From positions 1 through 64,000 of the forward strand of contig JAVYOA010000009.1 of the NCBI GenBank assembly GCA_038734945.1: DNA of 64,000 nucleotides, given 5' to 3'. Positions within the stretch are counted from its first letter, which is position 1; each line of letters starts with the position of its first letter. The stretch is from Fervidicoccaceae archaeon (GTDB taxonomy: Archaea > Thermoproteota > Thermoprotei_A > Sulfolobales > Fervidicoccaceae). This document shows, in pieces, positions 21,792 to 46,766 of this stretch. The position numbers were made by a program, and so were the translations under genes. The notes beneath the pieces are model-generated. The model saw only the letters and a program-made list of their open reading frames with translations, searched no databases and had not been told where the DNA came from.

Positions 21792-22338
21792 GAAGCTAAT
21801 AAAGGAGGAGGATCCCCAAGATTCCCTCGAAGAATATATTTACAAGCTAGCTCCCAAGGGATCTCTAACCCTTTTCCGCATGCTGAGAGACGAAGGAAAG
21901 GAGCTAACAGAGGACGAAATAGCTGAAATATTGGGAGCAAGCAAAAACATTGTCAGGAAAATTCTGTATAAACTCCACGACCTCAATGTATTAGTATATA
22001 GAACAGTTAAGGAGGAAAGCACGAACTGGAACACATACTACTGGAAGATAAATTGGGAGGGGCTGGCAATCTCTCTGTTGTATAGAAAAAAGGAGGTTCT
22101 CCAGAAGCTGAAGCAGAGACTAGCATATGAATCAACGAACAGAATAGTCTATCTATGCAGAAAGTGCGGAAGAGAATATAGATTCGAGGAAGCTCTTTCC
22201 AATGATTTTTCCTGTCCAATCTGCCACACTCCCTTGGACTACGTTGATAGATCTAAGCAGATATCAATATTGGAGGACTATGTGAGGAGGATTGAAAAGG
22301 AGCTTGCAGAGGAATCGAGAAGGCTTCAAAGTAGCTGA
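21775..22338 (+). CDS. tfe: Transcription factor E (TFE alpha)
   Basis: Winged helix (TEDEIA, VRKILYKL, YYW) plus Zn ribbon CRKC...FSCPIC. Confidence 0.9.
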   Translation: MSSKFEKLIKEEDPQDSLEEYIYKLAPKGSLTLFRMLRDEGKELTEDEIAEILGASKNIVRKILYKLHDLNVLVYRTVKEESTNWNTYYWKINWEGLAISLLYRKKEVLQKLKQRLAYESTNRIVYLCRKCGREYRFEEALSNDFSCPICHTPLDYVDRSKQISILEDYVRRIEKELAEESRRLQSS

Positions 22339-23284
22339 CCTTTTCTGTGGTGGAGGGGGCTTCGCGAGAGGGTTCAAGGAAAAAGGGTTCAGCATCCTAT
22401 TTGGCATTGATAACCTGAAGTCTGCTGCCAAAACCTATAAGGCAAATTTTCCCAAAGCTGTGGTCCTTGCCGAGGATATCAAGGAAATAACTGGCGAAAC
22501 AATAAAGAGCCTCGTTGGAGATGTGGATGTGCTGATAGGAAGCCCTCCCTGCGAGCCATTCACTGCTGCAAACAAACAGAGAAAAAGAGATCCTCTTGAT
22601 AGGCTCTACTCCGATCCGCAGGGCATCCTAACGCTGAATTTCTTCAGGATATTGAGCGAAGTTAAGCCAAAAGTCTGGGTGATGGAAAACGTTCCAGCCA
22701 TAATGGAAAACGGACTAAAGGACTCTCTGGCAAGAGAAGCAAGAAGAGCTGGATACAGCAGAATCTATTTCAACGTTCTAAGAGCGGAAGACTACTGCAC
22801 TCCGAGCAGGAGAACTAGGCTCTTTCTCTCAAACATCCCAATTTCTCCCGAGAGATGCAACAAGAGGGTAACTGTCTGGGAAGCAATAGGCGACCTTCCC
22901 CCTCCCAACCCCAGCTTTCCCCCAAATCATGAGCCCCCATCAATTAGTCCAAGAAAGCAGAAAAAGATCGGAAGACTTCAGCGGGGGAAGGCCATGATAT
23001 ACTACGAAGGTTTTGGAGGAAAACCCCTGCCCAATCTCATCAGATTAGATCCAGATGATATAGCTCCAACAGTTCTGGGAAGCAGCAGATTCATTCATCC
23101 CTACGAAGATAGGTTCCTCACTGTAAGGGAGCAGGCAAGGCTAATGGGTTACCCTGACAATCATGTTTTCATAGGAGGAAGAGATGAACAATATAACATG
23201 GTAGGAGAGAGCGTTCCAGTAACTTTATCATCCGCTATAGCTAATGAAGTTCTGAACTATCTTAGGAAGGAGGATGGGCTTTGA
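22292..23284 (+). CDS. C5 cytosine methyltransferase (Dcm fold), orphan
   Basis: Motif I DLFCGGGG, IV GSPPCEPF, VI ENV, VIII RRTR, IX LTVRE.ARL, X GESVP. Confidence 0.88.
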   Translation: MKRSLQRNREGFKVADLFCGGGGFARGFKEKGFSILFGIDNLKSAAKTYKANFPKAVVLAEDIKEITGETIKSLVGDVDVLIGSPPCEPFTAANKQRKRDPLDRLYSDPQGILTLNFFRILSEVKPKVWVMENVPAIMENGLKDSLAREARRAGYSRIYFNVLRAEDYCTPSRRTRLFLSNIPISPERCNKRVTVWEAIGDLPPPNPSFPPNHEPPSISPRKQKKIGRLQRGKAMIYYEGFGGKPLPNLIRLDPDDIAPTVLGSSRFIHPYEDRFLTVREQARLMGYPDNHVFIGGRDEQYNMVGESVPVTLSSAIANEVLNYLRKEDGL

Positions 23285-23800: not shown

Positions 23801-25222
23801 TTATGCTTCCTTGAACGCTTTTGCTAGCGGTATATACAGAATGAAGTTCAGCACTACTCCTATGTACCAGCTCAGATTCGTCGGCCACGGTATTGGTCCT
23901 GTCCAGGATATTTGTCCAATTGCCCAGCTGAATAGATAGGTTATCAGTATCGTTAGAACGTATGAGACTATTGCAGCATATGAATATCCTCCGTGGTACC
24001 AGTATCCCTCAGGTCCCTTTGTATATAGCTTCTGCAGGTCATAGCTTCTCTTCTTCAACAAGTAGTAATCAGCTATCATTATTCCTCCGATTGGTCCCAG
24101 TATTATGCCGTAGTTAGATGAGAAGGCAGTGACATAGTTCACTATTCCTGGTCCGCTATCAACTGCCCACCATGGCGCTAGGAAGAATCCTATGATTCCA
24201 GAGCCTATAGCAGCCCACTTTATAGGAAGCCTCAGCGTTGAAGTCAGTATGTTTATTGCTGCGGGTATGTTGGCTGTTATGTCTGTGCTGAACGGTGCCG
24301 CAAATGCGAAGATCTCCCCTAGGAGCATCGCCAAAGCACCTGGTGAACCATACAGAATGATCTCTTGTGGAGTTACCCTGCCTGTATATACTGAGAGGTA
24401 ATATCCAAGGAGAGATCCCACAATCTGCCCAACAACTATTCCCAATAAAGGTCCTATTATTAGAGCGTTGACTCCTCTTTTGTCAGCATATAGACCTCTT
24501 GACAAATCGCTTATATTGAGAGCTACTGTTGCCCACCAATTTGTTTGAACAGCTAAGTATATTGCGAACGGCATTGAGAAATATGAAACTCCTGCCGGCA
24601 CCTGTTCTACCGGAGTCCTACCGCTCAGGTAGTAAAGAAGCCATATGAAATAAAGGACGATGAGAGGTCCAGCAACGTCCACGAATCTAGCTATTGCTCT
24701 CAGTCCTTTCCACATAACGAAGGTAGCTAGGGCAACGTAGGGAAGTACGATTATTCCAACATATCTGAATGATGCTGCCGATATGAGCTCAGGATTTCTC
24801 CCTCCATATCCTAATGCATAGAGCAATATCATTATTATCGCAAGGCTTCCGTTATAGGCTTCAATCCCATACCATCCGAAGCCGACAATTCCTCTCAGAA
24901 CCACTGCGATCTCAGCTCCTCTGAATCCCCATGATGGCCTTAGCTGCACTGGATATGGTATTCCGTACTTCACTCCCACGATTCCGTTAAGCCAGAGAAC
25001 TACAACTGCAGCAAAGTTACCAACAGCAGCTCCTACAGCTACCTGCACTGGCGTTAAACCGAGGTTCAGACCTATTACTCCAAGGAAGAACATAGGTATA
25101 CAGACGTTCAGACCGAACATCATCCATGAGAATGATCTGACGCCATACAGCCTTTTATCAGACGGCATTGGCAAAAGTACTGGGTTCTCCTTATATCCCT
25201 TTGGTTCAACATTCCCACTCAT
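23801..25222 (-). CDS. NCS1-family nucleobase/hydantoin/HMP:cation symporter
   Basis: YGIPYPV..R..WG..G, GWYGI, W.T..LNISD.SR, PW, GIMIADYY. Start at 25222 (or 25273). Confidence 0.88.
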   Translation of the reverse strand: MSGNVEPKGYKENPVLLPMPSDKRLYGVRSFSWMMFGLNVCIPMFFLGVIGLNLGLTPVQVAVGAAVGNFAAVVVLWLNGIVGVKYGIPYPVQLRPSWGFRGAEIAVVLRGIVGFGWYGIEAYNGSLAIIMILLYALGYGGRNPELISAASFRYVGIIVLPYVALATFVMWKGLRAIARFVDVAGPLIVLYFIWLLYYLSGRTPVEQVPAGVSYFSMPFAIYLAVQTNWWATVALNISDLSRGLYADKRGVNALIIGPLLGIVVGQIVGSLLGYYLSVYTGRVTPQEIILYGSPGALAMLLGEIFAFAAPFSTDITANIPAAINILTSTLRLPIKWAAIGSGIIGFFLAPWWAVDSGPGIVNYVTAFSSNYGIILGPIGGIMIADYYLLKKRSYDLQKLYTKGPEGYWYHGGYSYAAIVSYVLTILITYLFSWAIGQISWTGPIPWPTNLSWYIGVVLNFILYIPLAKAFKEA

Positions 25223-25467
25223 ACTCAGATTACCACCACAGTTTGTGAATTCTAATAATGATAGATCTACCATTAATATTTAAATATTGTGTTAAAAAAA
25301 TATTGAAAATAGTCAAACAGCAATTGCTCATTGACAATTTTATCTTTTATGCACTTGCTATCTTTTTTTATAGATAATTTTTATAGATAAAGATGATAGA
25401 GATAATGAAGCAGAAAAATGTTGGTTCTATCTCTTAAAATCTCAATTAAACAACAGAACTATTTCTG

Positions 25468-35643: not shown

Positions 35644-36378
35644 ATGGTCAAACCACCCGTTCCGATATCAGTCAATGAAATACCCTTCAAGGTAGAACTA
35701 ATAGAAGCATACCTCCATTCTTCTGAGGACCTTGTTGCTGGCAAGGAATATGTGCCAAAGTTATATACAACAAAGCAGGGAGACAAGATAGTTTTCAGGC
35801 TTGCCAAGAAGGAAGAAGCCCCAATAATTCTCAACACACTAAAGAAGCTGATGGATCCTCAATACGATAAGGATCTCTATCATCTGGTTGCTACTAGGGT
35901 CTACGGTGAAGTTCTCGCATGGGTGCAGTCAAGATATAAAGATGAATATGTCCTGATTGGAGTTCATGATGGAGAGCTGATAGGAGTCTGGAACGCGAGG
36001 ATGTGGAACAAGGACATAGCAATAAGCCTCCACAGCATCACGTTCAAGAGGCTGGGTGGCATTGGCACAGCAGGATATGCTGCTAAGGCGGAATATGCAT
36101 TTGAGGTCCTTGGAGCAAAGGAGTGGTGGGCAACTTTTGAAAGTCCGTTCGGATTCAGACTCGGAATGTACTTCAGGCATTACATGAAGCCCTATCCAGA
36201 GGTACAGCACGAGCTAGGAGGATCTCCCGTCTTCTACATGACAGCTGACGATTGGTTCAACTTCCACAAGAAGAGAGAGGAGCTGAAGCCATTCTTCGGA
36301 ACAAGGCCAGTTCCAGAGGATCTGCTGAAGAAGAGCTATGAGCTAAGGCCACCGCAAAAGATAGAAATAGAGATCTGA
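35644..36378 (+). CDS. Uncharacterised protein, probable GNAT (N-acyltransferase) fold
   Basis: FRLAK..E start, beta hairpin VHDGELIG, motif-A-like KRLGGIGT..Y, YAFEVLG. Intact aromatic-rich ORF. Confidence 0.6.
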   Translation: MVKPPVPISVNEIPFKVELIEAYLHSSEDLVAGKEYVPKLYTTKQGDKIVFRLAKKEEAPIILNTLKKLMDPQYDKDLYHLVATRVYGEVLAWVQSRYKDEYVLIGVHDGELIGVWNARMWNKDIAISLHSITFKRLGGIGTAGYAAKAEYAFEVLGAKEWWATFESPFGFRLGMYFRHYMKPYPEVQHELGGSPVFYMTADDWFNFHKKREELKPFFGTRPVPEDLLKKSYELRPPQKIEIEI

Positions 36379-36467: not shown

Positions 36468-37091
36468 CTAAAAGAGCTCTTTCAGCGCATTTTCGAGGTC
36501 TTCAGGTGTATCTATATCTCTCAACGTTCCAGGATCTCCCGTTTCCACACATAAGATCCTATCTCTGTATTTTTCCACAACGCTCTTCAGCCCTCTTCCA
36601 GCTTCGCTTATTCCTTTTATCTCGTTCTGAAGCTCAGGCTTGAATATAATAGGATGAGCATGTCTTCCATTAAAACATGCTACAGTAATTGGCATGCTGC
36701 TTAGTAGGTGAGACTGTATCGTCTTTTTGATTGATGCAGGACGTATGAAAGGAACGTCACCTGGGTGTATTAAAACGCTCTCTCCTTGATTGACAATTCT
36801 CATGCCGACCTTTATTGAGCTGCTCATACCTCCGCTAGCATAGCTTGAGTTAAATGCAAAGTATACACGAGAGAGATCATCTTGATGAACTCCATTTACT
36901 ATAGCACTGAAGACCCTTTCATGGTCTCTTCCGAGGACCACGATTATTTTCTCCAATCCAGAAGCTATGAATTTTTCAACCGTATGCAGTATGATGGGTC
37001 TTCTATTTACTTCATATAGCAACTTGTTTCCTGGAAACCTCGTTGAGAGACCTCCTGCTAGTATAATTGCTGCAATGCTACTTTCTCCCAC
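36468..37091 (-). CDS. Molybdenum cofactor cytidylyltransferase (MocA/YgfJ-like)
   Basis: ILAGGLSTRF..NKLL, GMSSSI..G, GDVP, HP, DIDTPED. Confidence 0.85.
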   Translation of the reverse strand: MGESSIAAIILAGGLSTRFPGNKLLYEVNRRPIILHTVEKFIASGLEKIIVVLGRDHERVFSAIVNGVHQDDLSRVYFAFNSSYASGGMSSSIKVGMRIVNQGESVLIHPGDVPFIRPASIKKTIQSHLLSSMPITVACFNGRHAHPIIFKPELQNEIKGISEAGRGLKSVVEKYRDRILCVETGDPGTLRDIDTPEDLENALKELF

Positions 37092-37974
37092 TTTTCTCCT
37101 CTCCCCCCTTCATGATCTGCTCAATCAATGAGGGAACAGCATTCTCCTGAACCCCTTGAGCACCCCTATCGATCTTCATAATTTCGGCCATAACAGCTAT
37201 CGCTATTTCCTCAGGCGTCTCGCTTCCAACGGCTAGACCAATTGGCGAGACGAGCTTTTCCTTGATTATTCCCGGATCTATTCCACTGCTGATAAGAGAC
37301 TTCAATATATAACCGAGCTTCCCCCTTCCAGCGAGGAGTCCCAGATATCTGGGTATTATGCCTTCCTTGAAGATTTTCTTGAGCACTTCTGCTTCTAGGT
37401 TCCCATCACCGTGAACAATAACTACAAAATCATTCTTGTTTATCTTTATCCTGTCGAGCTCGGTTAAAATATTCGAGGACGCATAGATTTCATCCGCATC
37501 TGGTATTTTTTCCTTATTGGCATATTGTGGAAAGTTGTCAACGACAATTACCCTGTAGTTGAGCATTTTTCCCAGCTTAGCCAGAGGCCTAGCCACATGG
37601 CCTGCACCTATAATAACCAGCCTCTGCACGGGCTTCAAAACATCAATGAACACATTAACAACACCACCGCATAGCTGTTCAGTTGCTATGACCTCCTCAT
37701 AAAGACTTTCTCTGAAAAGAGCCACCCTTCTCTCTCCGGGCTTTCTGGTCTCTAGCACCCTCTTGGCTTCCTCTATTACCTTTCTCTCGAAGTCCCCTCC
37801 TCCTATGGTTCCAATGACGTTCCCATCCTCGTCAATGAACATCTTTGTCCCCGGTCCCCGAGGTGCCGACCCTGCTTTCTTTGTTATCTCTATCATGGCA
37901 ACAAGCTTTCCTTGCTCGAGCCTCTCTAGCACCCATCTAAAGAATACAGGGTCACTTGGATACTCACCCATCAA
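37078..37974 (-). CDS. xdhC: XdhC/CoxI-family molybdenum hydroxylase maturation factor
   Basis: GSAPR, GTIGGG..E, CGG, GAGHVA, PIGL..GSETPEEIA. Confidence 0.9.
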   Translation of the reverse strand: MMGEYPSDPVFFRWVLERLEQGKLVAMIEITKKAGSAPRGPGTKMFIDEDGNVIGTIGGGDFERKVIEEAKRVLETRKPGERRVALFRESLYEEVIATEQLCGGVVNVFIDVLKPVQRLVIIGAGHVARPLAKLGKMLNYRVIVVDNFPQYANKEKIPDADEIYASSNILTELDRIKINKNDFVVIVHGDGNLEAEVLKKIFKEGIIPRYLGLLAGRGKLGYILKSLISSGIDPGIIKEKLVSPIGLAVGSETPEEIAIAVMAEIMKIDRGAQGVQENAVPSLIEQIMKGGEEKSGRK

Positions 37975-38824
37975 CCGGCATCACCTTGCACACATGCTCC
38001 AAGAACAAGACTCTTCGATATTTATATATGCTGTAGGCAGTTATAAGTCCTAGCCATATATATAAACCACTATCGTGCCCCCTTCTTAGTAACTGCAGAA
38101 AAAGATCATATGCATCCTGCTCATCTCCCCGCAGCAGGGATACGGCACTATCTAGGACTAGCTCATCCAATAAACCCATTGAGGCATATTTGATATATTG
38201 AGAACTGGCCCACGAGGTTCTTCTCAAAAGCTCTTTATCTATCTTTGGGAAATAACTCTCATCAAATGAAGCGCACTTTCTTGCAATGCTGAAAAGAGAG
38301 AGCATTCCAGCGAGAAAGTCGTCGCCAGAAGGAGTGAATCCACCTCCGGCTCCAATTATCTCTTTCAGAGCACTCCCCGAAGTTAAAAAGTCCCTGTTCT
38401 TGCATATCCTTCTCATTGTCTCGGAGCCGAAGAAATTGTTCCACGCAGTTGAGAGAACTACAAATGCTCCTTTGAGAAATTTGAAATCCTCCTCCTCAAT
38501 TCCTCTGCACTCCTCAATCTCTGGTTCTTTCTGTCTATACAGCTCAGCTTCCGTTAGAAGTATCTTAGTGCTATTGCCTCTTATGGCCTCAGAGGTAACC
38601 TCGAGAATTTCGCCAGGCAGGAAAAACGTATCGAGAGGAGATAAGGGGACATTTATGGTAAACGGAGATCTCCATCTGTGGGCAGAGATTAAAACAAGGC
38701 CATCGTCTTTTATGTTTCTCAAGTAAACAGTTGTTCTAAAAACATGTTCAATTTTGAAAAGGGAGGTTTGGAAAAAAAATATATGGGAACCATAGCTCGT
38801 TGCTTTGATCTCTCTCCAGTACAT
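37964..38824 (-). CDS. DUF2877 protein (YlbF/AllH/YahE-like)
   Basis: IGAGGGFTPSGDDFLAG and GHDSG motifs. Adjacent to DUF1116 and FdrA. Confidence 0.82.
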   Translation of the reverse strand: MYWREIKATSYGSHIFFFQTSLFKIEHVFRTTVYLRNIKDDGLVLISAHRWRSPFTINVPLSPLDTFFLPGEILEVTSEAIRGNSTKILLTEAELYRQKEPEIEECRGIEEEDFKFLKGAFVVLSTAWNNFFGSETMRRICKNRDFLTSGSALKEIIGAGGGFTPSGDDFLAGMLSLFSIARKCASFDESYFPKIDKELLRRTSWASSQYIKYASMGLLDELVLDSAVSLLRGDEQDAYDLFLQLLRRGHDSGLYIWLGLITAYSIYKYRRVLFLEHVCKVMPVDG

Positions 38825-38832
38825 TACCCTTT

Positions 38833-40098
38833 TTACGCTCCGTACTTCTCAACATATGCCTTGAATGCGTCCTTGAATAGCTCAAACGGAAACTTGACTA
38901 TCCCTGCTCCAACTTGCCCTATACCAGCCTTCTTGTGAGCTATCCCTGTATTGATTGTTGGAGTTATTCCTGTCTTCAGCACGTATCTGATATCTATTCC
39001 AGTTGGCGTTCCCTGGAACCCCAAGTAGGGTATTGTGAAGTATTTGTGCTTGCTATAAGTTATATTATACATGTTCTTCGTGTTCTCAACAGCGAACTCC
39101 ACCGAGCCGCCAACCCAGCTTACCACTGCAGGAGCTGCTGCCATCGCAAATCCACCAAATCCAGCCGTCTCGGTTATCGCGCTATCTCCTAGATCTGGAT
39201 TGGCATCATCCTGTGTAAATCCAGGGAAGAACACTCCCTTCGGAACAGGAGCTGGTGCTGTGAACCATCTATTTCCCAGTCCGCTAACCCATATTCCTGC
39301 ATCTGTACCATTTCTGGTTAGGACAGTGACTATAGTGCTATATTCTATGTTGTGAGCAGCCAACGTCATTGCTTTCGCTGAAGCCATTCCTATATTCAAT
39401 GTGAAGAAATTGTTATTCTTCATGAACTCCCATACTCTTGAGAACACATCCTTGGGCACATCTGCCCTCACGAGATATGTTGCTATTTCGTTCATGAACT
39501 TGCTAGTTGCAGCAACATATCTATTGTGGCACTCGTCTCCCATATGGAGAGCCTGCTGGATTATCGACTTGAAGTTTATGCCACCCTTATCCTTTCTGGC
39601 CTCATCCAGTGCTGCCTTCAGTGCAGGATAAAGTTCATTCCTCATCCAATTCAGCCTAGATATGACCTCGCTGTCATAAGCTCCATACCTGAGTACTTTT
39701 CCTATACCCTCATTATAATTGCTAAATGCTCTGTTGCCGAATTTTTTATCTTCAATAATATAGACTGGCATGTTGAAGGAAATAACACCAGCCATCGGAC
39801 CAACAGCATTGAACTCATGATTTGGTCTAAGTATTACTTCTCCTCTCTCTACAAGCTTTATTGCTTCCTCCTCACTTGATGCCTTCCCCTCATATATCAA
39901 AGCACCAATTATTGCCCCCTTCATCGGACCAGAAGCTCTTTCCCAGGTTATTGGGGGACCTGCATGGATTAGCATATCCTCTTTCAGACCAGGGATAGCA
40001 TCCTTTGCTAATTTTGTATCCACTAAATATGGCTCTGCTTCCATCATTCTTTCTACTGCCTTTTTGTTTGCCTCCTCAATTTTTTCCTTAAGAGACAT
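38833..40098 (-). CDS. DUF1116 protein (YlbE/AllG/YahG-like)
   Basis: HAGPP, AVGPMAG, EGIGKVLR.GA, MGDECHNR, RNG, GDSAITET, PTGID, INTGIAH, GQVGAG. Confidence 0.92.
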   Translation of the reverse strand: MSLKEKIEEANKKAVERMMEAEPYLVDTKLAKDAIPGLKEDMLIHAGPPITWERASGPMKGAIIGALIYEGKASSEEEAIKLVERGEVILRPNHEFNAVGPMAGVISFNMPVYIIEDKKFGNRAFSNYNEGIGKVLRYGAYDSEVISRLNWMRNELYPALKAALDEARKDKGGINFKSIIQQALHMGDECHNRYVAATSKFMNEIATYLVRADVPKDVFSRVWEFMKNNNFFTLNIGMASAKAMTLAAHNIEYSTIVTVLTRNGTDAGIWVSGLGNRWFTAPAPVPKGVFFPGFTQDDANPDLGDSAITETAGFGGFAMAAAPAVVSWVGGSVEFAVENTKNMYNITYSKHKYFTIPYLGFQGTPTGIDIRYVLKTGITPTINTGIAHKKAGIGQVGAGIVKFPFELFKDAFKAYVEKYGA

Positions 40099-40135
40099 TT
40101 TTCTCACGCCCCTCAAATTATGAACTTTTAAAAAA

Positions 40136-40306
40136 CTAGAGTAGATCTGAGAGCTTCTCCGCCAGCTCTTTTTCGAGCTTTGGCGGAGGCTGGTAGTTCA
40201 CCTGGACAGCCTTCACGCCCTGCCTCTTGAGATCCTCATAGAATATTCTTAGCCCTACATTTATTACTTTCAAATCTTCATCGAATAGTTTTCTTGCTTG
40301 AGACAT
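40136..40306 (-). CDS. Small 56-aa protein equivalent to the FdrA C-terminal module (not in ORF track)
   Basis: Translated by hand: MSQARKLFDEDLKVINVGLRIFYEDLKRQGVKAVQVNYQPPPKLEKELAEKLSDLL*. Preceded by AGGTGA. The INVGL..F...L..QG..V....PP pattern matches the FdrA tail. Confidence 0.82.
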   Translation of the reverse strand: MSQARKLFDEDLKVINVGLRIFYEDLKRQGVKAVQVNYQPPPKLEKELAEKLSDLL

Positions 40307-40311
40307 GCATA

Positions 40312-41955
40312 TCACCTTCCCTGCTTCATATATGCCTTGAGATATTCTTCATAGAGAACATCGAGCTTCTTGCTATCCAAATTTCCTCTCAGGGCAGCAG
40401 TTGCTGCCGCCAAGGCCGATATCGCGTTTGTTGGATAGACAAGCACACCCTCCGACTCCAGCTTTCTCACCTGCTCCTCAAATCCCTGGGGGTCTTCCTT
40501 AACTCCCAACACATAGCCTATGATAATGAGATGCCTACCATCTCTCTCAGCTATTCTCTTTGCTTCCCTTATAGCATCCAGATGAGCTCCTGCAGGATCT
40601 GGGTGACTTCCATATCCGAGCACGAAGTCCATTAGTATAACAGCAACTTCGGGATCCTTAGCTTCATCTATAAGTCTTATCCTTCTGATGGTTGGATCTA
40701 TCATTGGATGCGCTCTGCCAGCAGTAAATTCTTCCTCTCCTAGATCCACTACCGTATTGCCAACGCTCTTGAAAGGATCTTCGAGCTTTCTCTGTCCCTT
40801 TAGTGGGGCATTGCTGTATATCTCTATTCCAAGGAGATCGAATATCATTAGAGCCTCGCTGGTAAGCGTGCCTCCTGTATATAGTGCCCTAATGTACTTC
40901 TGCGAGCTTTTCAGCTTTTCATAATGCGGCTTAAGAGAATCTCTCAATTTCCCAAAAGGTATTGTGTATTTTTCCCATATCTGTTCATATGTTGATTGTG
41001 AAACCAATCTAACAGCTTCAAGTGCCGTTGCGTGCAGAGTTCTAGCGACACTTACCCTTTCTCCCATTCCTTCAGGTATCCTCATATCAACCTTTCCCAT
41101 GAAGCCAAGAACGATGGGCTTTTTTGTGTTCTCGGCTGCAAAATTAAGTATAGAGTCCAGCGTTTCCTGCTGCGGCGGCTTTGATACTATTGTGATTATC
41201 TTTGTGGAAGGATCCCTCTCCAGATAGAGGAGAGAAAGCTTAGTCATTAGCCCCCCCACATAGTTCTTAACATCTCCTCCCCCAACTCCTAGCCCATGAG
41301 AGATTCCAAGACCCATGTTATGAATTAGTGAACTCACTTCCTGAAGACCTGTTCCTGCTGCTGCTATTATTCCAATTGGTCCTCTCCTCACGGCGTTTGC
41401 GAATGCTATGGCTTTTCCATTGATTATTGATGTTCCTGCTCCAGGTCCAAGAACGAGAAGACCTCTCTCATAAGCGTATTTTTTCAGCTCAACTTCATGC
41501 TCCTCAGGAACATGGTCGCTGAACAAATGGACATGGATTCCTCTTTCGAGAAGCTTCATAGTAACGTCCCTAGCATATTCCCCTGGAACCGAGACTATAG
41601 CCAAGTTAGCGTCAGGCAATGCGCTAATTGCTGATTCCAGGTCGAGGTACTCCATTTCTCCACCAGATACCGGGGCGCTCAGAAGCTCCCTTGCTTTTGC
41701 TAATGCATTATCCAGCGAAGCATTGTCCTTCGCAGCAATAGCAATAAAGAGATCAGAATCACCGGCCTTTTCAACTTCAGGAAGGAGAAGTCCGAGCTGC
41801 TTGGCTATTTCCTTGTTGGTTTCAGTTCCCATTGCCACGATAGCTTCGAGAACCCCGCTGAGCTTTTTCAGCTCCTCGCTTATTTTCATGAGCTGAAGAC
41901 TATCTCTCATAAGGTTCTTTTCAACTATAACCCCACTTACTCTATCCTGCGACAC
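40312..41955 (-). CDS. fdrA: FdrA/AllF/YahF-like protein (succinyl-CoA ligase alpha-like fold)
   Basis: DSLQLM, MGT..N, SVPGEYA, FSD.V..E..LK, GTGLQE, SKPP, GGTL, HPMIDP, DFVLGYGSH.DP. Confidence 0.92.
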   Translation of the reverse strand: MSQDRVSGVIVEKNLMRDSLQLMKISEELKKLSGVLEAIVAMGTETNKEIAKQLGLLLPEVEKAGDSDLFIAIAAKDNASLDNALAKARELLSAPVSGGEMEYLDLESAISALPDANLAIVSVPGEYARDVTMKLLERGIHVHLFSDHVPEEHEVELKKYAYERGLLVLGPGAGTSIINGKAIAFANAVRRGPIGIIAAAGTGLQEVSSLIHNMGLGISHGLGVGGGDVKNYVGGLMTKLSLLYLERDPSTKIITIVSKPPQQETLDSILNFAAENTKKPIVLGFMGKVDMRIPEGMGERVSVARTLHATALEAVRLVSQSTYEQIWEKYTIPFGKLRDSLKPHYEKLKSSQKYIRALYTGGTLTSEALMIFDLLGIEIYSNAPLKGQRKLEDPFKSVGNTVVDLGEEEFTAGRAHPMIDPTIRRIRLIDEAKDPEVAVILMDFVLGYGSHPDPAGAHLDAIREAKRIAERDGRHLIIIGYVLGVKEDPQGFEEQVRKLESEGVLVYPTNAISALAAATAALRGNLDSKKLDVLYEEYLKAYMKQGR

Positions 41956-42004
41956 TATTTCTCACCTATGAATAGCGAAAAAGAGGAAAAAATTTTTAAA
42001 AAAA

Positions 42005-42889
42005 TTACTCAGGACCATTACATATCGCGAATATTCTTGCGAAGGCCGATTCTGCTCCTTCCACCTTAATTGGTGCTCCAGATATGAGGCAGCGCTTGTT
42101 TAGAACTTTTGATATCTCCCCTCCGAGGTTCTCAGCATGCAGCACTCCTCTTGGGAAAGTGTATGTGTGAAGCACCTGGTAGTTCTTTGGCCACGGCATC
42201 ACTTCGTCAACAGACTTTCCAAACTTCTCCTTGAAGAGATCTGCAATATCTGGTCTAACTCTCCTAATAACTGTATCGAGCGGGTGGTCCTGGCTTATGG
42301 CATCTACACCAGTCCACTTGAGCTGCTTCTTAACACACCACTCAGCAAACTCAGCAGTAGGTCCGGGATGCATTAGCTGATACCTCACAGTATCAGCGGT
42401 TGGCTGATCCCATTGATACTTGTGATATCCCGTGTGAATAATCAAAATATCTCCTGGCTTCAATTCGAGGTTGTGCTCCTTCAGCTTCCTCTCAATCATT
42501 TCCGATGTGTATATACTCAGATCCTCCACTTCATCACTTATATCAACGATCACTCCTTCTCCAACAAAATGGTCAAGAGGAATCATGTCTATTGATGGGG
42601 CTCCAGGGTCAAAATGAATTGGACCATCCATGTGTGTTCCGATGTGCCACGCAGTTTCAATAGCCTGCGCTTGGACTTTGTTCTCAGGAAGAGTCTTTAT
42701 CCAGTACATCTTGAATGGTGGATATGTTGGAAAGGGCGGCGCATATATACCGAGGGGCTGACTCAAGTCGTAAATTCTTGCCTCGTCCCAATTAATGAGC
42801 TTGCTCCACTTGTATTTTGGTTTTGGTATGTATGCCTTTATGTATGGTTTTTCCAACCTAGAAGAATAGTTTATGCTCAATTCCATCAC
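42005..42889 (-). CDS. Cyclase family metal amidohydrolase (kynurenine formamidase/isatin hydrolase fold)
   Basis: DLSQP, HIGTHMDGPIH (HxGTHxDxPxH), HTG, GVD..S.DHP, ENL, P.K..G.E.A.AR. Confidence 0.9.
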   Translation of the reverse strand: MMELSINYSSRLEKPYIKAYIPKPKYKWSKLINWDEARIYDLSQPLGIYAPPFPTYPPFKMYWIKTLPENKVQAQAIETAWHIGTHMDGPIHFDPGAPSIDMIPLDHFVGEGVIVDISDEVEDLSIYTSEMIERKLKEHNLELKPGDILIIHTGYHKYQWDQPTADTVRYQLMHPGPTAEFAEWCVKKQLKWTGVDAISQDHPLDTVIRRVRPDIADLFKEKFGKSVDEVMPWPKNYQVLHTYTFPRGVLHAENLGGEISKVLNKRCLISGAPIKVEGAESAFARIFAICNGPE

Positions 42890-43077: not shown

Positions 43078-43151
43078 GGGCCCGTGGCTCAGCCAGGTAG
43101 AGCAGCGGGCTTTTAACCCGTTGGTCCCGGGTTCAAATCCCGGCGGGCCCG
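43078..43151 (+). tRNA. tRNA-Lys(TTT)
   Basis: Acceptor GGGCCCG/CGGGCCC, D arm GCTC/GAGC, anticodon arm GCGGG-CTTTTAA-CCCGT, T loop TTCAAAT. CCA not encoded. Confidence 0.95.
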
Positions 43152-43281
43152 CATCTCATATCTCACTTGCTTGAGCTTGATGCTCTCTGCTCCTTAAAAT
43201 ACAAAGAAATCGATCACAAATCTAAAATAATGGATGGTCAAGTTATAAAGAAGTGAGTGCTTGTCTACATGGTGATTCAAT

Positions 43282-44425: not shown

Positions 44426-45649
44426 ATGGTAGAGCCGTGGATAGGAAAAGCAGCAACTTTTAATTACTTCAGCGGAGCATCTCAGGATGGAGCATTTCTA
44501 GACTCACTTGTTTTCTCCATTCACAACATTGAAGCGATAATAATCGATCCCATGCTCTCCAAAACATTGGGGAGGGAAAATGCTATCCTAAAGCAAACAA
44601 AAGCAGTTAAGCTAGCTCTTTTTGCCAGAGACTTTCCAGCTGAAGCTTTGAGGTTCATATCAGAGCTCGACACACCTATCATACATTACGCGAGGGATAA
44701 AGATGCAATATTCTCTGTAGCAGATCTTGGCATAAGACCATCGGTGATCTTGGCTGACGAGAGCATCCCAACTGGCTTAGGATGCATGGGTGATTCTACA
44801 GAGAAGGCAAAATGCGTTTCCTCGTCCTCAGGATCATCCCATGTTCTACTCTTGGACAGAGACGAAGACATCTTCTTTTCGAAAGGAAGAACTAAGCTCT
44901 TCACAAAGAGAGGGGAAGAACCTGGGTGGAGGGCCGAGATTCTCTCAGCTCATATAACAGCTCTTATCGCTTCTGGTTTTGACGCAGAGAGTGCAGTCGA
45001 TCGTGCAGAGAGCGAGCTGGAAGACCTGCTCAAATTATCAGGATCCCACTCGAACCCAATCCTTCCCCTTATAAGAGAGAAGGAGAGGATGAGGGCAATT
45101 AGATCCGTGAAAACAGCAGTAGATATGATAATAAAGAGGTCCGAGCTTCTGAGCAAAATCTCTCCTGAGGTTGGTATTAACGTTGCAGAGAGCGTCCCAT
45201 GCTGGCTGATAACTGGAAGGGAAGATGTCGCTGCCGTAGAAGGAAGAATTGTCAGGGTCAAAGATACTCTAAGGCAGGTTGGATGTGTGGAGCTAGGTGC
45301 TTCGAGTCATCTTGCTAGAGCGCTGATTGAGAGCTGCCGGCACTCATCTTCCATCAGAGGAGTCGTAAACATAGCATACAGCCCAGAACTGGTGGAGGCA
45401 TCAAGGAGAATTGGGCTGAAGATAGTATTTGTGGACAGAAGAAAGGAGCCTCCAGAAATCAGGGAAAAGGAAGGAGCTACCATGGGATGGGTAATATCAG
45501 AGGCCTATAGAATGCTTGGGGGAGAGGCTCCAGATGCAATTTATGATGTGGGAGATGTAGGAAAAGAGGCAATGATTCGCTTTTTTGGGAGAACAGCACC
45601 GGAAGCAGTTGAAAAGCTGATAAAAACAGCAGAGGAAGCTCTCAAGTGA
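44426..45649 (+). CDS. thiN: ThiDN-like fusion: degenerate ThiD-like N-domain plus ThiN thiamine-phosphate synthase
   Basis: C-domain PEVGIN, AVEGRI, GASSHLAR, NIAY, DRRKEP, EG.TM.W, D.GDVGKE. N-domain has only SGA..G...D remnants. Confidence 0.75.
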   Translation: MVEPWIGKAATFNYFSGASQDGAFLDSLVFSIHNIEAIIIDPMLSKTLGRENAILKQTKAVKLALFARDFPAEALRFISELDTPIIHYARDKDAIFSVADLGIRPSVILADESIPTGLGCMGDSTEKAKCVSSSSGSSHVLLLDRDEDIFFSKGRTKLFTKRGEEPGWRAEILSAHITALIASGFDAESAVDRAESELEDLLKLSGSHSNPILPLIREKERMRAIRSVKTAVDMIIKRSELLSKISPEVGINVAESVPCWLITGREDVAAVEGRIVRVKDTLRQVGCVELGASSHLARALIESCRHSSSIRGVVNIAYSPELVEASRRIGLKIVFVDRRKEPPEIREKEGATMGWVISEAYRMLGGEAPDAIYDVGDVGKEAMIRFFGRTAPEAVEKLIKTAEEALK

Positions 45650-45683: not shown

Positions 45684-46766
45684 ATGTACATGCTCTCAAA
45701 ACATCCTCTGGAGCTTCCTCCCAAGAGACAGCTCTCAAGGGAGGAAATAATGGAGGCCCTGAGGCTCAACATAATTGCTGAGCTTGATGCAGTGAACCTG
45801 TACGAACAATTAGCAAACTACACTTCAGACGATAATGTTAGAAAGGTTCTGCTCGATATAGCAAAGGAGGAGAAAACTCACGCTGGTGAGTTCCTTGCTC
45901 TGCTGAAGAGCCTAGATCCAGAGCAAGTAGCAGAGCTTGCAGCTGGGGCTGAAGAGGTGAAGAAACTCACAGGAATATCAGCAGAGGATCCCCCCATTTC
46001 CCAAGCAGAATTGGGCTCTAGGAACGGAACTTTTTTGGAAGGAATCAGCAAAAAGGTTCTAGATGCAGCTGAGGGAGCCAGATTCCTCAGAAACATCCTT
46101 CCTGTCCTCAAGCTAGGAAGAGGGACGGAATTCGTTCAAGTTGTATCATCAAACGGTGAACTAAAATTCTCCCAACTGCATGAAATAAGCCTCTCATTCT
46201 CAATAAAGCAGAGAGAACTTGATTTTTGGAAGAAAACAGGACAAATACCCGAGCTGGTCCAGGCACAAAATGCTGGAATAAAGCTGGCTATGCTCGAGGA
46301 CGACTTCATACTTAGAGGTTCAGAGAAGGAAAAATATCCAGGACTGCTCACTTGTGAATCTGTGCAGAGATTACAAATAAGTGACTGGAGTCAGCCCAAC
46401 AACAGCGTGGCCGATGCTGCGCTTGCTATTGGAGCCCTATTTTCCAAGGGCGCTCCCAGACCATATGCGCTGCTTCTAAGCCCAAGAGATTATGCAAATC
46501 TGCTCAGACATACAGAGAGAACTGGAGTTTCCGATCTCCAGAGAATTAAGGAGATATTTGACAGAGTAGTGATGATTCCAAGCCTTGAAGAGGGAAAGGC
46601 CGTAGCCCTCTCTCTGAACAGCGTAGTTGCTGATATTGTTCTGGGCGGAGATACTGAGGTAGATGAGGTTGGGCCGAGGGAAGATGAAGTAGAATATAGA
46701 GTTTGGGAAACAATACTGCTCAGAATAAAGTATCCAGCGGGAATAGTTGTTCTGGAAAAGAAGTAA
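45684..46766 (+). CDS. Ferritin-like protein fused to Family 1 encapsulin shell
   Basis: N-terminal ALR..IIAELDAVNLYEQ...EEKTHAGEF (encapsulated-ferritin type). C-terminal LA.LED..IL.G, PGLL, PY.LLLSP..Y, VWET...RIKYP. Confidence 0.9.
   Translation: MYMLSKHPLELPPKRQLSREEIMEALRLNIIAELDAVNLYEQLANYTSDDNVRKVLLDIAKEEKTHAGEFLALLKSLDPEQVAELAAGAEEVKKLTGISAEDPPISQAELGSRNGTFLEGISKKVLDAAEGARFLRNILPVLKLGRGTEFVQVVSSNGELKFSQLHEISLSFSIKQRELDFWKKTGQIPELVQAQNAGIKLAMLEDDFILRGSEKEKYPGLLTCESVQRLQISDWSQPNNSVADAALAIGALFSKGAPRPYALLLSPRDYANLLRHTERTGVSDLQRIKEIFDRVVMIPSLEEGKAVALSLNSVVADIVLGGDTEVDEVGPREDEVEYRVWETILLRIKYPAGIVVLEKK

Follow-up and report, generated by a model that had tools for sequence, protein, structure and literature searches.

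A stretch of 64,000 nucleotides from a hot-spring Fervidicoccaceae archaeon (positions 1 to 64,000 of contig JAVYOA010000009.1, assembly GCA_038734945.1; hereafter the window) carries an operon of seven genes that is proposed here to encode the hydrolysis and phosphorolysis steps of a nucleobase catabolism, the oxidative half of which would be located elsewhere in the genome. The operon combines a cyclase-family metal hydrolase, a carbamoyltransferase-like complex of FdrA, AllG and AllH subunits, and the two proteins XdhC and MocA, by which the molybdenum hydroxylases (Mo-hydroxylases) of the oxidative half would be matured. Judging from the sequences and their genomic context, we assign a probability of roughly 0.75 to the reading that a Mo-hydroxylase, a ring-opening hydrolase and an acylurea carbamoyltransferase act together on a nucleobase-type ring. 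The substrate is most likely a pyrimidine rather than a purine, and a specific route from uracil or thymine through (methyl)barbiturate and ureidomalonate to carbamoyl phosphate and malonamate is put forward tentatively, at slightly less than even odds.

Genes in the window were called from a listing of open reading frames (ORFs) together with Pfam and NCBIfam profile searches. The operon consists of seven consecutive minus-strand ORFs, running from position 42889 down to 36468, with junctions that are either overlaps or gaps of 8-49 nt:

42005..42889, minus strand: cyclase-family metal amidohydrolase, proposed ring opener (294 aa; PF04199, 128 bits)
40312..41955, minus strand: FdrA/AllF-like subunit (547 aa; PF00549 and PF02629; succinyl-CoA-synthetase-alpha-like fold)
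40136..40315, minus strand: small free-standing subunit (59 aa; no Pfam family)
38833..40116, minus strand: AllG/DUF1116 subunit (427 aa; PF06545, 295 bits)
37964..38824, minus strand: AllH/DUF2877 subunit (286 aa; PF11392, 61 bits)
37078..37974, minus strand: XdhC-family Mo-cofactor insertion chaperone (298 aa; PF02625 N-domain and PF13478 Rossmann domain)
36468..37091, minus strand: MocA-like molybdenum-cofactor cytidylyltransferase (207 aa; PF12804, MobA-like)

The ORF, Pfam and tRNA calls confirm the description in an earlier note on this DNA, in which seven co-oriented, mostly abutting genes next to a tRNA-Lys had been recognized. The start of the cyclase is probably the ATG at 42886 rather than 42889, and the small subunit probably comprises 56 aa from an ATG at 40306 instead of the 59 aa as called. 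The FdrA, AllG and AllH genes adjoin one another and all three exceed their Pfam cut-offs, while scores against NCBIfam models are lower: FdrA reaches 397.5 bits with NF004760, under the cut-off of 433, XdhC stays under the equivalog cut-offs of NF045664 (194 bits, cut-off 350) and TIGR02964 (102 bits, cut-off 161.6), and the best match of the MocA-like protein, MocA/YgfJ TIGR03310, gives 125.7 bits under a cut-off of 186.45, with only 54 bits, also under cut-off, against MobA models. The cyclase and its partner enzymes look intact as far as their sequences tell, and the synteny of all seven genes recurs in two other archaeal assemblies, at protein identities of 47-94%.

The linkage of these genes was followed through a sample of 401 Thermoproteota genomes, 26 of which encode AllG, distributed over approximately nine GTDB families besides the window's own. 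Regions of up to 20 kb around the 25 other AllG matches, together with two loci from a contig search with the single cyclase sequence, which returned these two only, make up a set of 27 archaeal loci. Within this set, tblastn found FdrA in 25 loci, the cyclase (at least 44% identity) in 23 and the Mo-hydroxylase gene XdhL in 18; of the four cyclase-negative loci, two are short contigs and a third has a fragmentary AllG, which leaves one other. Among the 401 genomes, 23 encode the cyclase subfamily (E <= 1e-100), and 22 of these are AllG-positive. The Mo-hydroxylase family PF02738 occurs in 24 of the 26 AllG-positive genomes compared to 114 of 401 overall, and carbamate kinase in 26 of 26 compared to 145 of 401, overlap counts that were read from tables by eye, include related and non-independent genomes, and are descriptive rather than statistical tests. 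When metagenomes were scanned with an alignment of 16 cyclase sequences, the best 80 of 577 relatives were kept; FdrA-complex genes accompany 47 of these loci, Xdh genes 42, and one or the other 62, and the corresponding numbers for the 26 loci of at least 15 kb are 23, 20 and 26. The linkage of cyclase and fdrA is thus kept across about nine Thermoproteota families and in metagenomes, and such comparative context supports the core of what the earlier note had suggested, namely that a Mo-hydroxylase would oxidise a heterocycle, the cyclase would open its ring and the FdrA complex would phosphorolyse the resulting ureide. One Mo-hydroxylase, one ring hydrolase and one acylurea carbamoyltransferase make up the conserved core, which would be just sufficient for a three-step route.

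The genome to which the window belongs is assembled into 9 contigs (1.34 Mb, 99.95% complete), and a search for the anticipated Mo-hydroxylase revealed four operons of the CoxLMS type, each with large, FAD and 2Fe-2S subunits (PF02738/PF20256, PF00941 and PF01799). They are positioned at C9:191.6 kb, C9:196.7 kb, C9:101 kb and C1:18.5 kb, none of them inside the window. PF02625 has only one match in the genome, the XdhC of the operon, and all four Mo-hydroxylases presumably depend on it for this reason. A tree was built from 25 Xdh large subunits (ORFs longer than 600 aa among 26 matches, one being dropped for length), where the copy at C1:18.5 kb falls together with the large subunits of family f23 whose genes stand between those of the cyclase and FdrA (support 100/99), and the one beside the cluster in genome G357 groups with the copy at C9:101 kb (100/100). 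The two copies flanking a pyrC-like gene have long branches and stand apart from the cluster-linked clade. This grouping indicates that the structural Mo-hydroxylase genes moved away in the lineage of the window and that only XdhC and MocA stayed. The window represents a split form of the module, with the sole XdhC and MocA kept in the operon and the hydroxylases located elsewhere; the XdhC/MocA-only arrangement is also found in loci L012 and L013, while L042 keeps XdhLMS in addition to XdhC and MocA.

Such a split form could also arise by chance juxtaposition, if XdhC and MocA were housekeeping genes of molybdenum cofactor maturation abutting an FdrA operon that needs no Mo-hydroxylase. In line with this, XdhC and MocA are both in the cluster in only 3 of the 27 archaeal loci, XdhC was found in 9 of the 80 metagenome loci, and the Mo-hydroxylases of the window's genome lie away from the operon. 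Nevertheless, the clusters of most other lineages include or adjoin structural XdhLMS genes, and Mo-hydroxylases are found in 24 of 26 AllG-positive genomes against 114 of 401 in the whole sample, which makes a chance origin very improbable. A ThiS/MoaD-like small protein, probably the small subunit of molybdopterin synthase, is encoded directly upstream of the C1 Mo-hydroxylase operon (C1:18.05-18.35 kb; L008:9053-9346), and a protein of this type also occurs in or near the clusters of 8 of the 27 loci (L043, L047, L052, L054, L055, L059, L060 and L063).

In regard to the carbamoyltransferase-like complex, the window FdrA is 41% identical to Escherichia coli YahF and 35% identical to AllF, AllG has 46% identity to E. 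coli AllG and the same to YahG, and AllH is 32% identical to E. coli AllH over part of its length. The histidine His416 of FdrA, within the motif FTxGRxHPMIDP, is invariant in 24 sequences, AllF and YahF included; by analogy with the alpha subunit of succinyl-CoA synthetase, it may be the catalytic histidine. The AllH motif GxGxGxTPxxDD is likewise conserved in 25 sequences. The 59-aa ORF aligns with residues 509-554 at the C-terminal end of E. coli AllF and also with residues 1-53 at the N-terminal end of E. coli YahG, and the segment was found in 23 of the 27 archaeal loci, where it is a separate ORF in at least 12 and fused to AllG in 2; for the remaining 9 of these 23 the ORF caller gave no ORF of at least 55 aa. 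In an alignment of 12 sequences the mean column identity of the segment is 63%. Since it matches the end of one subunit and the start of another, and recurs, it is a mobile segment of the complex, encoded separately in the lineage of the window, and on such sequence conservation the 59-aa ORF is real and not noise. A predicted complex of FdrA residues 120-547, AllG and, as the partner chain, the 59-aa ORF scored 0.76, compared to 0.63 with an unrelated protein in place of FdrA, and is taken as evidence in neither direction.

The closest system with a known function is AllFGH-AllK of E. coli (FdrA-YlbE-YlbF-YbcF), the oxamate carbamoyltransferase and catabolic carbamate kinase of anaerobic allantoin use, which has the three families and the tail segment in common with the window. 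Purified E. coli AllFGH, the only characterised member of its family, catalyses the reversible conversion of oxamate and carbamoyl phosphate to oxalurate and Pi (PMC11326118). By analogy, the same chemistry could operate in the window, with an N-acylurea and Pi giving carbamoyl phosphate and an amide. There are also clear differences: in the window the tail is a separate 59-aa ORF, the operon contains no carbamate kinase and lacks allB, allC, allD and allE, a cyclase leads and XdhC and MocA trail, FdrA scores under the NCBIfam FdrA cut-off, and the substrate is probably not oxalurate.

A second comparison is offered by the paralogous E. coli YahEFG-YahI-YahJ cluster, which contains the YahF closest to the window FdrA. 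In YahG, the tail segment is joined to the DUF1116 protein, as it is in two archaeal loci, and YahJ belongs to the same group of cytosine-deaminase-like amidohydrolases as some neighbours of the archaeal clusters. Unlike the archaeal module, the yah cluster includes neither a cyclase nor a Mo-hydroxylase. A literature search on YahEFG gave no functional characterisation of these proteins; YahE, YahG, YahI and YahJ are reportedly named in a y-ome paper.

The proposed ring opener is the sole PF04199 gene in the genome. Residues H82, G84, T85, H86, D88, H92, H202, H241, H251 and E253 are invariant in 16 cyclase orthologues, and the window cyclase fits HxGTHxDxxxH, the metal motif of PF04199. An AlphaFold2 (AF2) model of the protein, with a predicted local distance difference test (pLDDT) score of 76, gave the cyclase-fold hydrolase 3krv, isatin hydrolases and the kynurenine formamidase KynB as the top Foldseek matches, at 18-21% identity. 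Isatin hydrolase and kynurenine formamidase, which are characterised PF04199 enzymes, resemble the window cyclase in fold and in having the conserved His/Asp metal residues, and their reaction, hydrolysis at an amide or lactam bond, is of the kind proposed for it. On the other hand, they are only distantly related to it in sequence, and their genomic partners are wholly different. The nearest neighbours of the cyclase in a protein atlas are exclusively bacterial clusters (Sysuimicrobiota, Chloroflexota and Dormibacterota), which is a lead only.

The resemblance to isatin hydrolases and KynB could be taken to mean that the substrate is an indole, isatin or kynurenine-type compound and that the cyclase is an isatin hydrolase or formamidase tied to the indolepyruvate oxidoreductase (IOR) encoded, together with ACS, 0.9 kb downstream of the operon in the window. 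The same matches are remote, however, and against the KynB equivalog TIGR03035 the cyclase scores 47.1 bits where the cut-off is 223. Moreover, adjacency to IOR/ACS is found only in L012 and L077, which are near-identical copies from one lineage (1 of 27 archaeal and 1 of 80 metagenome loci), and an indole product would offer no ureide to the carbamoyltransferase. We therefore rejected a functional link to the IOR/ACS genes, the adjacency being local synteny of a single lineage, and regard an indole-type substrate as hardly credible. The earlier note had left the choice between a purine or pyrimidine and an indole derivative; the former part stands, with the evidence favouring a pyrimidine over a purine, while the latter does not.

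Genes in the vicinity of the clusters provide further hints about the substrate. Cytosine-deaminase-like Amidohydro_3 proteins of the YahJ group occur in 5 of 27 archaeal and 10 of 80 metagenome loci, NCS1/NCS2 permeases in 8 of 80 metagenome loci as well as in L045 and L081, and the binding protein of a Bmp/PnrA-type ABC transporter in 6 of 27 archaeal loci. CoxG was found in 29 of the 80 metagenome loci and carbamate kinase beside the cluster in 7 of them. A third group consists of genes that could act on the carbon skeleton, namely amidase-signature (AS) amidases (3/27 archaeal and 8/80 metagenome loci), a dicarboxylate-type coenzyme A (CoA)-transferase III (L045 and 4/80 metagenome loci) and an mmdA-like carboxyltransferase of the (methyl)malonyl-CoA decarboxylase type (10/27 and 15/80 loci), the last often with OAD_beta and a biotin carrier; the mmdA/OAD_beta set of the window's genome is on another contig. 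L045 brings most of these functions together in one gene row, comprising CoA-transferase, amidase, XdhSML, cyclase, FdrA, tail, AllG, AllH, NCS2, NCS1 and a carbamate-kinase-like gene. In the genome of the window, an NCS1-family permease (cytosine/purine/uracil/allantoin type, PF02133) is encoded at window positions 23801-25273 on the minus strand, 17 kb from the operon, a second one lies at C3:31331-32770, and a cytosine-deaminase-like amidohydrolase is found at C4:29966-31177.

An alternative that retains most of this architecture is that the complex is a true oxamate carbamoyltransferase acting on oxalurate derived from purines (by way of xanthine, urate and then an allantoin-like compound), with the cyclase replacing the upstream amidohydrolase. 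Oxalurate is the substrate of the sole characterised family member (PMC11326118), the Pfam names of the subunits are AllG and AllH, the best NCBIfam matches of the Mo-hydroxylases are xanthine dehydrogenase models (all under cut-off), and the CoA-transferase III of L045 also resembles CoA:oxalate transferases. Set against this is the composition of the genome, where AllD is not represented by any Ldh_2 match and the best match to AllC gives 18.9 bits for a cut-off of 597. One gene does reach the allantoinase model TIGR03178 (364 bits, cut-off 357.85), but it scores 356.6 bits with pyrC, well over that cut-off of 279, which rates it equally well as a dihydroorotase, and it occupies the interval separating two Mo-hydroxylase operons, with an unambiguous pyrB downstream. 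A canonical all pathway was not found, and of the three findings that would have contradicted the earlier note (no Mo-hydroxylase in the genome, an unconserved cyclase-fdrA linkage, and such a pathway elsewhere) none appeared. In addition, the window FdrA is nearer to YahF than to AllF, conversion of urate to allantoin demands more enzymes than the conserved core has, and the mmdA-type decarboxylase neighbours suit a C3/C4 product, not C2. On this balance, oxalurate as the substrate seems improbable. The region around the pyrC/allantoinase-like gene (C9:191.6-201.4 kb; L006) has an arrangement of its own, in which two CoxLMS-type operons flank this gene and the second is directly followed by pyrB.

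FdrA trios are also present in bacteria, associated with other hydrolases. More than 100 enterobacterial plasmids contain a cluster of AtzD, NCS2, DUF2877, FdrA, DUF1116 and carbamate kinase, in which AtzD scores 580 bits with its equivalog model and, in the cluster of L067, AllG is 51% identical to the archaeal AllG; this cluster is a possible carbamoyl-phosphate-yielding route for cyanurate or biuret. In L067 (NZ_MZ753460.1) and about 100 further enterobacterial plasmids, the full row reads transporter-like protein, AtzD-equivalog cyanuric acid hydrolase, NCS2, DUF2877, FdrA, DUF1116, carbamate kinase and LysR. A megaplasmid of P. acidaminophilum (NZ_CP007453.1; L066) carries PucR, two xanthine-type permeases, a BiuH-like cysteine hydrolase, DUF2877, FdrA, DUF1116 and carbamate kinase. 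For ammonia-oxidising archaea and comammox, allFGHK beside biuH is reported as annotation in PMC12625717, and the passages covered mention no cyclase or Xdh partner of the archaeal allFGHK. The logic of these systems is that of the window module, in that the trio and carbamate kinase are combined with a hydrolase for rings or ureides and a permease of the nucleobase type, although the hydrolases come from other families and a Mo-hydroxylase is missing. The bacterial analogues have a ring-opening or ureide hydrolase in the place of the cyclase. The common denominator of these systems, AllFGH included, appears to be phosphorolysis of an N-acylurea, R-CO-NH-CO-NH2.

The complex in the window might instead phosphorolyse biuret, carboxybiuret, allophanate or triuret-type acylureas to carbamoyl phosphate and urea or carbamate, the ring opened by the cyclase then being cyanurate-like or another trioxo ring. 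The plasmid trios beside the AtzD equivalog, the trio beside the BiuH-like hydrolase of P. acidaminophilum and the annotated archaeal and comammox allFGHK-biuH neighbourhoods (PMC12625717) all speak for it. Nevertheless, the breakdown of s-triazines or biuret leaves nothing for a Mo-hydroxylase to do, and among the archaeal partners this enzyme is the one most conserved (18 of 27 loci; 24 of 26 AllG-positive genomes). The genome gave no match to the AtzD/TrzD family (TIGR02714), which is a weak null, the control likewise having matched no genome. We consider biuret-type substrates quite improbable for the archaeal operon.

The pyrimidine route, to which we return, would proceed in five steps. 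Cytosine could be deaminated to uracil by the cytosine-deaminase-like hydrolase on contig C4, after which C6 of uracil or thymine would be hydroxylated by a CoxLMS-type Mo-hydroxylase to yield barbiturate or 5-methylbarbiturate; the C1:18.5 kb and C9:101 kb operons are candidates for this step. The cyclase-family metal hydrolase would then open the barbiturate ring to ureidomalonate, which is an N-acylurea, and the complex of FdrA, the 59-aa subunit, AllG and AllH would phosphorolyse ureidomalonate to carbamoyl phosphate and malonamate. Finally, carbamate kinase could make ATP from carbamoyl phosphate, unless biosynthesis takes it. With thymine as the substrate, methyl analogues of the products would be formed, and the carbon could be disposed of by an amidase, a CoA-transferase and a (methyl)malonyl-CoA decarboxylase. 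Carbamate kinase, which had been named among the genes to look for, is present in one copy, outside the operon, at C1:170798-171733 and above the arcC cut-off.

The classical oxidative pyrimidine pathway consists of uracil/thymine dehydrogenase (EC 1.17.99.4), barbiturase (EC 3.5.2.1) and ureidomalonase (EC 3.5.1.95). No gene is known for uracil/thymine dehydrogenase, and a literature search gave no reference sequence for this enzyme. The route proposed here has the intermediates barbiturate and ureidomalonate in common with the classical pathway, and likewise begins with an oxidative hydroxylation, but its ring opener would have the cyclase fold and not the AtzD/barbiturase fold, and the ureide would be phosphorolysed to carbamoyl phosphate instead of being hydrolysed to urea. 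Taken as a whole, it could represent an oxygen-independent oxidative pyrimidine pathway of hyperthermophilic archaea, in which the CoxLMS-type Mo-hydroxylase is the orphan uracil/thymine dehydrogenase, the cyclase-fold enzyme a non-homologous barbiturase and the AllFGH-type complex a ureidomalonate carbamoyltransferase, so that the ureido group is turned into ATP or, without a carbamoyl-phosphate synthetase (CPSase), into the only carbamoyl phosphate of the cell, instead of urea. This comprehensive proposal is a shade more speculative than the route itself. A full-text literature search gave no description of a module of cyclase, FdrA and Mo-hydroxylase or of an anaerobic barbiturate route.

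The use of the product is a related question. It is also conceivable that the operon supplies carbamoyl phosphate for pyrimidine and arginine synthesis rather than conserving energy, an explanation that is compatible with the favoured one and concerns only what becomes of the product. No CPSase large subunit was found in the nearly complete genome, although the control matched 14 of 14 genomes, and carbamate kinase or the FdrA complex may thus be the sole source of carbamoyl phosphate. With such a gap, carbamoyl phosphate may serve biosynthesis as much as ATP formation. The interleaving of pyrB and the pyrC-like gene with two further Mo-hydroxylase operons and the position of carbamate kinase outside the operon point in the same direction. 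On the other hand, carbamate kinase alone could provide carbamoyl phosphate, and its gene lies inside the cluster in L045, L081, L087 and G357, as in the catabolic E. coli operons. A purely biosynthetic purpose is for these reasons rather unlikely.

Several observations weigh against the catabolic reading or its pyrimidine version. The proposed steps are read from gene context. The Mo-hydroxylases of this genome lie at least 58 kb from the operon or on another contig, and the solved structures closest to the Mo-hydroxylase linked to the cluster, those of 4-hydroxybenzoyl-CoA reductase, CO dehydrogenase and quinoline oxidoreductase, give no indication of its substrate. The amidases in the clusters are generic AS enzymes, two of which were topped by GatA in a search of the PDB, while malonamidase E2 appeared for one only, with an E value of 1e-36. 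The mmdA/OAD_beta neighbours may serve propionate metabolism, as PrpD and methylisocitrate-lyase-like genes are nearby, and five of the mmdA/OAD_beta loci come from one genus and are non-independent. In the window's genome, the only AS amidase is GatA, adjoining GatB, and tblastn found no CoA-transferase III, both of which bear on the fate of the amide product in this organism. The FdrA trios located by AtzD or BiuH also make biuret-like acylureas plausible substrates for the family.

If the proposal is correct, it would provide candidates for steps of oxidative pyrimidine breakdown for which no gene is known. The AllFGH family, with its one characterised member, would then act on a range of N-acylureas, and the recycling of the ureido group of nucleobases would gain an alternative to urea release that yields ATP or carbamoyl phosphate. 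Furthermore, many archaeal genes of the 'form II CO dehydrogenase / xanthine dehydrogenase family' would gain a function.

Two features border the operon:

35644..36378, plus strand: GNAT-fold neighbour, convergent to the operon (no Pfam family)
43078..43152, plus strand: tRNA-Lys(UUU), upstream of the operon, on the opposite strand

A functional link of the operon to the tRNA-Lys was rejected. The protein encoded at 35644-36378 has no match in Pfam or NCBIfam, and a sequence search of the PDB gave one chance-level match. Its AF2 model (pLDDT 82) matches a GNAT-like acyltransferase fold, with Rv0802c (E 3e-6), PatZ and SpeG as the top Foldseek hits at template modelling (TM) scores of 0.45-0.5. 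Its homologues stand next to the cluster at 8 of the 27 archaeal loci and at 13 of the 80 from metagenomes.

In regard to environmental data, hot-spring DNA runs X1-X4, among which may be the sample of origin, contain at least 90% of the sampled words, and a hot-spring RNA run (X13, approximately 3% sampled) gave 0 reads on the locus. Contigs of 180-257 nt from the RNA library X11 match parts of the cyclase, FdrA and AllG genes and the junction of the first two, differing at 0-5 positions, although such libraries can contain DNA. Elsewhere in the window, a C-5 cytosine DNA methyltransferase (PF00145) is encoded at 22292-23284 on the plus strand, ThiN at 44426-45649, and a rubrerythrin/EncFtn-like domain fused to an encapsulin shell protein (PF04454) at 45684-46766 on the plus strand; PCNA is encoded in the window as well.

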